IMG/VR virus record: IMGVR_UViG_2568526473_000002
Coordinates: 1-40,006 of that record
Origin: a virus
Lineage: Duplodnaviria > Heunggongvirae > Uroviricota > Caudoviricetes
Direction: 5' to 3' (one strand)
Length of the DNA stretch: 40,006 nt
Made by a program: the position numbers and the translations under genes. Shown here piece by piece: positions 13,188-14,256 of this stretch (its first letter is position 1; each line of letters starts with the position of its first letter). Below the pieces are notes generated by a model. The model was not told the DNA's origin. It made no database searches and saw nothing but the letters and a program-made list of their open reading frames with translations.

Positions 13188-13214
13188 AGGGAGGGCTAAG
13201 CCCTCCCTATTTTT
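13188..13214. terminator. Bidirectional rho-independent terminator between convergent adhesin and esterase genes
   Basis: Perfect 9-bp stem agggagggc/gccctccct with 3-nt loop, A-rich upstream and T-run (attttt) downstream. Confidence 0.75.
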
Positions 13215-14256
13215 ACAGGTTAGCGTTTGGGTTCTGTTGTTGGGTAGTGGTTTTTATGGGGGCTCCCAGGTTTTTAGTAAACCACTCAACGACTCTGTTT
13301 ATAATAATTGGCTGATACCATGTATTATCGCCATGCTCAGCCCCTTCTACCAGAACGTACTCAGCGTTATCGCCGTTCTTCTTCAACATCCTGAATAGTT
13401 TGGCGCTTTGCTCAGGTGAAACCAGAGTGTCTTTGCTACCATGCATAATAAGAAATGGGGGTTTTACTCCTTTCATATGTCCGATTGGACTGGCGTTTAG
13501 CGCTTTTTCTTTTGACGCTGTTATGGGGGCTCCCGCAAAACTTCTGAATGCAGGGCCATTGATCATTAAGGCTTCGGTTACGGCAGGAGATCGATGAACC
13601 TTCTGCACTGATTCAGGGAACCCCTCGCCAATATTCAACAAGTCAGAAATCCCATAAAGTGTGGCAACTGCCTGAACATCTGCTGATTGCTGAAGAAAGT
13701 CACCTTTATCAAAGGTTTTGTCACCATTTGTAGTTCCCATCATCTGGGCAAGCCATCCACCGGCAGAGTCACCCAGAACTCCGATTCTTTGAGGATCAAT
13801 CCCATAATCGCTGGCATGTTCTCTCAAGTAACGTATTGCAGCTTTCCCATCCTCAACTGGTGCTGGAAATGTATCAGGAATTGTTCTGTATTCTACAGCG
13901 GCCACAACAAAACCAGCTTCAGCCAGAGCCATTCTCATTTCAATAAATTTGTCATGTTCAGAAGACATGAATCCGCCGCCGGGATAATAAATAATGGCTG
14001 GTTTTAAATCATTTGTTCGCGGGACAAGAACTGACATGTGAAGCTGCCTGACAGAACGAGTTCCTTTTATCTGGGAATAAACAACATCACCAATGAGATC
14101 GACCTGGTTTCTGGTCGGTGAAACACTAATGATATCTGCACCCGGGGTGTAACCAGGAAGATTAGTCTGGACAGGTGTTGCACAACTCCCGACCGACATG
14201 GCCATTGACATACCATACAATAGTGTTGCAGATGATAATATCTTGTTAATTTTCAT
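13213..14256 (-). CDS. Secreted lipoprotein alpha/beta-hydrolase (esterase/lipase, HSL-like), 347 aa
   Basis: Lipoprotein-type signal ending VGSC; oxyanion-hole-like YYPGGGF and nucleophile elbow GDSAGG (GxSxG). Confidence 0.78.
   Translation of the reverse strand: MKINKILSSATLLYGMSMAMSVGSCATPVQTNLPGYTPGADIISVSPTRNQVDLIGDVVYSQIKGTRSVRQLHMSVLVPRTNDLKPAIIYYPGGGFMSSEHDKFIEMRMALAEAGFVVAAVEYRTIPDTFPAPVEDGKAAIRYLREHASDYGIDPQRIGVLGDSAGGWLAQMMGTTNGDKTFDKGDFLQQSADVQAVATLYGISDLLNIGEGFPESVQKVHRSPAVTEALMINGPAFRSFAGAPITASKEKALNASPIGHMKGVKPPFLIMHGSKDTLVSPEQSAKLFRMLKKNGDNAEYVLVEGAEHGDNTWYQPIIINRVVEWFTKNLGAPIKTTTQQQNPNANL

Follow-up and report, generated by a model that had tools for sequence, protein, structure and literature searches.

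BD-FAE, a bifunctional feruloyl/acetyl-xylan esterase from beaver-dropping and moose-rumen metagenomes, frees ferulate from corn-fiber oligosaccharides and acetate from birch xylan, and its catalytic triad Ser128/Asp237/His269 was defined crystallographically (PMC8165983). The feruloyl esterases listed under CE10 include two Dickeya enzymes, FaeD and FaeT, of which FaeD is Out-secreted. NanS-p of Shiga toxin (Stx) prophages is a sialate O-acetyl esterase that lets lysogens use Neu5,9Ac2 (PMC8065619). Here, we analyze an esterase gene in a 40,006-nt stretch of viral DNA (Caudoviricetes; IMG/VR record IMGVR_UViG_2568526473_000002, positions 1 to 40,006), referred to below as the window, in which the element carrying the gene is a lambdoid prophage with its integrase at the window start. 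The gene almost certainly encodes an intact exported serine esterase, is best read as a lysogenic-conversion moron in the nin region of the prophage, and probably acts, as judged from its relatives, on plant phenolic (feruloyl/cinnamoyl) esters rather than on the bacterium's own surface sugars.

Family, catalytic residues, and export signal of the esterase

The esterase open reading frame (ORF) is uninterrupted, with 347 codons from an ATG start to a TAA stop. The features assigned to it are as follows.

13213-14256, minus strand: esterase coding sequence, predicted BD-FAE-family alpha/beta hydrolase (ORF, PF20434, and PHROG 3341 "esterase")
14182-14256, minus strand: predicted signal peptide and lipobox V-G-S-C with Ala at +2 (PROSITE-type regular expression; Cys25 codon at 14182-14184)
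13969-13983, minus strand: predicted oxyanion-hole loop P92-G-G-G-F96, invariant, aligned with the YGSAWF loop of BD-FAE
13765-13767, minus strand: predicted catalytic Ser164, codon TCT, in GDSAGG, invariant, aligned with BD-FAE Ser128
13429-13431, minus strand: predicted catalytic Asp276, codon GAC, in HGSKD, invariant, aligned with BD-FAE Asp237
13333-13335, minus strand: predicted catalytic His308, codon CAT, in AEHGD, invariant, aligned with BD-FAE His269

The best-matching Pfam family was BD-FAE (PF20434; 1.4e-44, 152.6 bits against a cut-off of 26.8), with residues 80-290 covering profile positions 7-214 of 215; Abhydrolase_3 followed far behind (1.4e-22, 81 bits against a threshold of 25). 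PHROG 3341, named "esterase", matched at 3e-129. Among solved structures, the goat-rumen lipase Lip_vut4 (6NKF; 7.7e-37, 34% identity) is nearest by sequence; further solved relatives are a Bacteroides eggerthii GH43-CE protein (6MLY) and BD-FAE (6TKX and 6XYC, about 2e-21). An AlphaFold2 (AF2) model built with 32 homologs (predicted local distance difference test 76, predicted template modeling score 0.79) retrieved the same four structures in Foldseek (6NKF at 7e-23, 6XYC at 4e-17, 6MLY at 1e-16, and 6TKX at 2e-16), with target-normalized template modeling scores of 0.68-0.75.

An initial annotation of this DNA, made by a model from the letters alone, had proposed structural modeling as a check on the catalytic triad. 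The alignment speaks for such a triad: in a HMMER alignment to 6TKX, Ser164, Asp276, and His308 fall on BD-FAE Ser128, Asp237, and His269, and the AF2 model matches the family fold. All 32 aligned homologs keep these three residues and the PGGGF loop unchanged.

The same annotation had described hormone-sensitive lipase (HSL) family motifs. The motifs themselves are present (YYPGGGF at residues 90-96, GDSAGG at 162-167), whereas membership in the HSL family is contradicted. The HSL-family oxyanion motif is HGG(G) with a conserved His. In the window esterase, the His of HGGG is replaced by Pro92, which is invariant in the 32 homologs, and neither the Asp motif (HGSKD) nor the His motif (EHGD) is HSL-type; because of these two differences, the HSL resemblance is one of clan only. 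HSL-subfamily NCBIfam scores were GTSAG 54.9 (cut-off 380), GESAG 47.6 (430), GCSAG 32.2 (410), and LipP1 78.7 (350), and the protein lies far under the cut-off of every NCBIfam esterase, lipase, and HSL model. On these profile and motif grounds, we assign it to the BD-FAE family of alpha/beta hydrolases and not to the canonical HSL enzymes. PADLOC defense models matched neither the esterase nor the neighboring adhesin, and an anti-phage defense reading was dropped for this reason.

The N-terminus begins MKINK (K2/K5), continues with a hydrophobic core, and ends in V-G-S-C25-A, matching the PROSITE-style lipobox pattern; the charged n-region, the hydrophobic core, and a lipobox Cys within residues 15-35 are those of a bacterial lipoprotein. 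With VGSC at residues 22-25, the earlier description of a 347-aa predicted lipoprotein carrying VGSC, YYPGGGF, and GDSAGG is borne out by the ORF, the motif positions, and the lipobox search. Under the E. coli "+2 rule", Ala at +2 predicts sorting to the outer membrane, and Asp at +2 signals Lol avoidance. Lipidation at Cys25 and an outer-membrane location are therefore predicted from the signal sequence.

Among 120 cluster representatives of the family, three pass the lipobox pattern with start codons as called. After start-codon correction, the Escherichia coli lineages show VGSC, SAGC, and STGC, the last two in sister lineages, unlike the plant-associated homologs, which have ordinary AxA-type signal peptides. 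By these patterns, the lipoproteins of the esterase family are those of the E. coli lineages. An exact 41-mer spanning the Cys25 codon was found in 680 of 5426 complete E. coli genomes. Tyr stands in place of the lipobox Cys (TGT to TAT) in the cluster representatives P0001 and P0005. A common Tyr allele was rejected, since the window-lineage 41-mer with this change occurs in 0 of the 5426 genomes; the two variants are either rare losses of the anchor or sequencing errors in draft assemblies.

Nei-Gojobori ratios of non-synonymous to synonymous substitution (dN/dS) between the window esterase and three other prophage or phage copies were 0.17-0.20. The ratio against a further copy, L006, was 0.52, from 11 differences only, and those against sister lineages were 0.04-0.09, with dS saturated. 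As sequence-based estimates, these values are consistent with a working protein under purifying selection.

Prophage setting and modularity of the esterase cassette

The early region of the prophage runs in the order integrase, exo/bet, repressor, O, P (8670-9371), adhesin, esterase; to the right of the esterase lie ybcN (ninB), ninE, ybcO, rusA, and Q, followed by lysis and morphogenesis genes. The esterase thus occupies a slot between P and ybcN/ninB. Its 1.3-kb region matches 734 of the 5426 complete E. coli genomes, about 680 of them at 95-99% identity, and the protein is present at 97% identity in eight phage records (Perceval, 4A7 (twice), Lambda_4C10, D2, 1W, 3W, and PhiR47_2). The ORF is full-length in the translated prophage and phage copies L001, L002, L003, and L006. 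The esterase is phage cargo and not a broken host gene: the possibility, raised in the initial annotation, of a host gene fragment disrupted by phage insertion was rejected because the ORF is full-length, flanked by phage genes, and present in phage genomes, and the cargo interpretation made there is upheld by the P-ybcN position and the eight phage genomes.

GC (guanine plus cytosine) content is 0.42-0.46 over the adhesin and esterase genes versus 0.50-0.56 in P and the nin genes. Conserved flanking phage genes, presence or absence among collinear phages, and deviant GC are all found for the esterase, as for morons. The late genes of the window (27087-38440) look contractile-tail-like, including a 498-aa ORF of sheath size at 27087-28583 and, after it, ORFs of baseplate-like appearance; esterase-carrying database phages such as Perceval appear lambda-like, unlike the window prophage. 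The early-region cargo slot may be common to different virion types.

Three further features frame the esterase gene.

9622-13176, plus strand: inverse-autotransporter adhesin, 1184 aa (Pfam IAT_beta at 4e-101, five Big_1 matches)
13185-13211, both strands: putative terminator, a perfect 13-bp hairpin with U-rich tails on both strands (inverted-repeat search and folding)
14257-14561, minus strand: upstream part of the esterase cassette, right edge at about 14561 by comparison with L005

The two genes are convergent, and the esterase (13213-14256, minus strand) is indeed transcribed towards the adhesin gene (9622-13176, plus strand), as the initial annotation had stated. Between them, the hairpin has two arms of 13 nt (13185-13197 and 13199-13211) that are 100% complementary, with folding energies of -29.5 kcal/mol on the plus strand (z -7.9) and -22.4 kcal/mol on the minus strand (z -4.8). 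A perfect bidirectional terminator had been placed at 13188-13214: the perfect pairing and the U-tails on both strands hold, and the coordinates were about 3 nt off. The Rfam family sraA was rejected for this hairpin (24.5 bits against 56) in a scan of 13000-14800.

The slot exists in three arrangements: P-adhesin-esterase-ybcN in the window and L001; P-renD-emrE-ybcK-esterase-ybcN in phage Perceval and L006; and P-adhesin-ybcN, with no esterase, in L005. In pairwise BLAST comparisons, the esterase module starts on its left side at 13210 and the adhesin module ends on its right side at 13215. Against L005, the cassette extends to about 14561, giving it a span of about 13210-14561. In the junction alignment, the only sequence that the three arrangements have in common is a TTTTTA run at the esterase stop codon, and the joints fall in this T-run (13210-13215 in the window, about 7226 in L005, and about 7001 in L006). 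A terminator hairpin lies 3' of the esterase in each arrangement that has the gene; in Perceval and L006, it is a different hairpin, GCAGCCCGCACTTATGCGGGCT, after the esterase stop codon. Because homology breaks within the TTTTTA run, and the hairpin is kept with the adhesin and exchanged where the adhesin is absent, the 13185-13211 hairpin is assigned, from these alignments, to the adhesin module. The adhesin terminator appears to have been placed beside the esterase by recombination in the T-run, which suggests that morons in this slot, upstream of ybcN, are joined by recombination at microhomologous terminator tails. The idea that the gene pair shares its terminator does not survive this comparison, since the hairpin stays with the adhesin in L005 and is replaced in Perceval and L006.

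The adhesin-esterase joint, scored where a 451-nt junction probe matched over at least 80%, is present in 438 complete E. coli genomes; in 172, the esterase is joined to the ybcK side. The 5' half of the adhesin gene occurs in 560 of the 5426 genomes. The adhesin was not found in any phage record, including all eight that bear the esterase. The pairing is far above independence (438 observed versus about 70 expected); the excess comes from the two genes being physically linked in a successful prophage lineage, strains of sequence type 131 (ST131) included, and does not point to a functional unit. The proposal of a co-acquired unit is not supported, given the esterase without adhesin in 172 genomes and eight phages and the adhesin-only L005. 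The search of other genomes for the pair outside prophages, which the initial annotation had suggested, likewise gave nothing: in 85 related loci outside the prophage lineage, neither an inverse autotransporter nor lambdoid genes were found near the esterase homolog. The adhesin and esterase genes are separate morons at one hot spot upstream of ybcN, and they are to be analyzed as such.

Several observations concern the adhesin itself. It has 1184 aa in the window versus 1303 aa in other E. coli prophages (L001 8166-12077, L005 3279-7187), a difference that points to one Big_1 repeat (about 119 aa) less in the window copy. The gene is frameshifted in strain 2015C-4136CT1, where an IS66 element also splits it. 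Compared by size only, none of FdeC, YeeJ, and IatA-D as listed in PMC6714894 has the 1184 aa of the window adhesin; that study of E. coli inverse autotransporters mentions no prophage context.

Upstream of the esterase, a perfect 10-nt inverted repeat, TAATAGCCGT (14313-14322) and ACGGCTATTA (14375-14384), with a spacing of 52 nt, lies 57-128 nt 5' of the ATG. Phage Perceval keeps this repeat, which may serve as an operator or leader element. As a structured RNA leader it is unconvincing (fold z = -1.7), and the Rfam scan of 13000-14800 found no family for the upstream region. Window positions 14521-14600 match the phage 82 record X92588, which is annotated with a possible regulator-binding site, -35/-10 elements, and a ribosome-binding site upstream of a ninB-like gene. 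The match points to a promoter that would serve the ylcH-ybcN-rusA block, immediately to the right of the esterase cassette.

Relatives, substrate, and rival explanations

Esterase homologs at 55-74% identity are spread over many taxa, all with N-terminal signal peptides. Enterobacterial hosts include Dickeya, Pectobacterium, Pantoea, Klebsiella, Kosakonia, and Serratia; others are Rhizobium, Azospirillum, and leaf Sphingomonas, and gut hosts are Sutterella, Bacteroides/Prevotella, Akkermansia, Campylobacter, and Helicobacter. Closest are four sister lineages from E. coli, P0002-P0005, at 75-80% identity. In P0002 (79%) and P0004 (75%), a phenolic acid decarboxylase gene (PF05870, 2e-84) on the same strand precedes the esterase gene by 17-34 nt. 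The P0003 allele (80%, lipobox STGC) lies near a gene for a SPATE-type (serine protease autotransporter of Enterobacteriaceae) autotransporter and a perC homolog (L013 515-4438 and 5512-5802), a setting that suggests a virulence plasmid or island in some E. coli.

When all ORFs within 3.5 kb of an esterase homolog were clustered across the 85 related loci, phenolic acid decarboxylase was the most frequent neighbor (12 loci), and a divergent LysR regulator gene came second (9 loci). Decarboxylase linkage was seen in E. coli islands, Serratia, Symbiopectobacterium (twice), Mangrovibacter, a proteobacterial metagenome-assembled genome (MAG), Azospirillum (twice), Aeromonas, Pedobacter, and a Flavobacteriales MAG. 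Decarboxylase-linked genes occur at scattered positions in a neighbor-joining tree of the family, in which the window esterase groups with the E. coli lineages, two of them decarboxylase-linked. An esterase that releases the acids is the obvious upstream partner of such a decarboxylase.

The window esterase is also 66% identical to P0076 of D. aquatica, named "Ferulate esterase", and 46% identical to a second BD-FAE paralog 4 kb away. The two paralogs (L008 6001-7032 and 10089-11075) are 40% identical to each other, have apparent signal peptides, and are separated by major facilitator superfamily (MFS) and LysR genes. They fit the locus tags DAQ1742_00888 and DAQ1742_00893, which a published table gives as faeD and faeT, respectively; by coordinate and locus-tag order only, P0076 is more likely faeT.

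Decarboxylase linkage, similarity to a Dickeya ferulate esterase, and BD-FAE membership are the grounds on which we favor hydroxycinnamate esters as the substrate class; on the same three grounds, the O-acetyl groups of surface polysaccharide offered in the initial annotation are the less supported option. The explanation as a whole, including a hydroxycinnamoyl (feruloyl-type) substrate, seems to us reasonably likely. Under it, the cassette would be transcribed leftward from a promoter somewhere in 14257-14561, against the pR-driven early-right operon, and the gene would be expressed in lysogens. The pre-protein would be exported through Sec, receive its lipid at Cys25, and be tethered to the outer membrane, as Ala at +2 predicts. 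Ser164, activated by His308 and Asp276, would attack the ester carbonyl while the backbone amides of PGGGF steady the oxyanion. The likeliest substrates would be plant hydroxycinnamoyl esters reaching the envelope in the gut, such as feruloyl and p-coumaroyl sugars, feruloylated oligosaccharides, and chlorogenate-type esters, with acetyl esters, as for BD-FAE, likely to be cleaved on the side. A decarboxylase-esterase operon of an enterobacterial island is the probable source of the cassette, which would have shed the decarboxylase and LysR genes and then recombined separately from the adhesin by way of the T-run that follows the terminators.

Several points weigh against this explanation. The decarboxylase is linked in only 12 of the 85 related loci, and its gene is absent from the window, where a tblastn search for remnants was also negative. 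The naming of the two D. aquatica paralogs as FaeD and FaeT is tentative, being based on locus-tag order. The closest solved structure, Lip_vut4, carries a lipase annotation, and confidence in the AF2 model is low at residues 95-101 (the oxyanion loop), 52-71, and 232-243. A promoter scan upstream of the esterase recognized no sigma-70-like promoter on the minus strand. To our knowledge, no enzyme assay exists for the window esterase or for any relative more than 66% identical to it. Nor do we know of E. coli using feruloylated polysaccharides, which leaves the benefit to the host unclear.

A broad carboxylesterase or lipase acting on short- and medium-chain acyl esters of dietary or host lipids or xenobiotics, with no link to phenolic esters, would account for Lip_vut4 being the best match in both structure and sequence (34% identity), for the weaker matches to family IV esterases and to chloramphenicol hydrolase, PETase-like, and polyhydroxyalkanoate depolymerase models, and for the 73 of 85 related loci with no decarboxylase nearby. 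We consider it unlikely: the NCBIfam equivalog models for esterases and lipases all score far under cut-off, 55-65% identity across phyla suggests a constrained and specific enzyme, the sole recurrent functional neighbor is the decarboxylase, and the sole named close homolog is a ferulate esterase. Less probable again is an envelope O-acetyl esterase that works with the adhesin, deacetylating O-antigen, capsule, or another surface glycan and thereby unmasking the adhesin or altering phage receptors. The BD-FAE family also deacetylates xylan, the predicted lipoprotein would sit in the envelope, O-acetyl esterases are known from phages (NanS-p, tailspike esterases), and the adhesin adjoins in 438 of about 680 carriers, against about 70 expected under independence. 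This excess is nevertheless explained by linkage within one prophage lineage over-represented in clones such as ST131; each gene also occurs without the other, the hairpin goes with the adhesin, an inverse autotransporter is found in 0 of 85 related loci, and the cross-phylum partner is phenolic acid decarboxylase rather than any glycan-modifying gene.

That the esterase is a hitch-hiking passenger with no selected role in lysogens, kept by a young clonal prophage lineage, we regard as very improbable. The promoter result speaks for it, as do the lost decarboxylase and regulator partners and a distribution that may partly reflect clone sampling. The gene nonetheless occurs in at least two prophage arrangements and eight phage genomes, its ORF is full-length in L001, L002, L003, and L006 with triad and lipobox intact, dN/dS is about 0.2 within the lineage, and several divergent lipoprotein alleles persist in E. 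coli.

If the hydroxycinnamate substrate is right, about 13% of sequenced E. coli, ST131 included, carry a phage-borne envelope enzyme that frees ferulic, caffeic, or p-coumaric acid from dietary fiber and chlorogenates, and this would be the second case after NanS-p of lambdoid prophages changing host use of gut substrates. The label "alpha/beta hydrolase" would give way to a testable function. Cinnamoyl esterase activity is reported for the human colonic E. coli strains Nu, MC, and WC-1 (Couteau 2001, as cited in PMC9560768). The cassette, together with its decarboxylase-linked sister alleles, is an obvious candidate and might be the determinant of strain-variable colonic E. coli cinnamoyl/chlorogenate esterase activity, a suggestion that we offer only tentatively. 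In that case, temperate phages would carry an enzyme for dietary polyphenol esters from one gut E. coli strain to another, and the lipid anchor would be an adaptation of the phage lineage that holds the enzyme on the cell. We know of no gene assigned to the activity of the Couteau strains.

Comparison with known systems

NanS-p offers a conceptual precedent only, as a lambdoid-prophage esterase of E. coli that unlocks a gut nutrient. It differs in lying in the late region downstream of stx, in not being a lipoprotein, and in having a proven substrate, Neu5,9Ac2. No sialate-esterase family is among the Pfam matches of the window esterase, and we know of no family relationship between the two proteins. 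HSL family IV (Abhydrolase_3, for example E. coli Aes) shares the clan, the GDSAG-type elbow, and an above-threshold Abhydrolase_3 match; the differences are the Pro in place of the HGGG His and the S9/DLH-type Asp and His motifs (HGxxD...V, EHGD).

The decarboxylase-esterase operons contain the orthologous esterase at 57-79% identity, and their E. coli island copies are also predicted lipoproteins. The prophage copy differs in lacking the decarboxylase and LysR genes, and its 5' region and signal peptide are unrelated; homology at the nucleotide level with the decarboxylase-linked copies begins about 140 nt into the ORF. The Dickeya enzymes FaeD and FaeT belong to the same family and have signal peptides, the D. 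aquatica paralogs being 66% and 46% identical to the window esterase. Their genes are chromosomal, with LysR and MFS neighbors, and their signal peptides are of the ordinary kind, lacking a lipobox. In a 2011 Dickeya study by Hassan and Hugouvieux-Cotte-Pattat, the Dickeya enzymes are said to act with the plant pathogen's pectinase arsenal.

BD-FAE (6TKX/6XYC), the founder of PF20434, shares the Pfam family, the fold, and, residue for residue, the triad. Identity is about 25%, and BD-FAE has GFSSG and YGSAWF where the window esterase has GDSAGG and YPGGGF; BD-FAE is a Bacteroidota polysaccharide-utilization-locus enzyme, whereas the window esterase is prophage-borne with a lipobox. The esterase is already annotated as "alpha/beta hydrolase" or "esterase" in hundreds of genomes and in PHROGs. 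What sets it apart from BD-FAE and the Dickeya esterases is its carriage by a prophage and its predicted lipid anchor.

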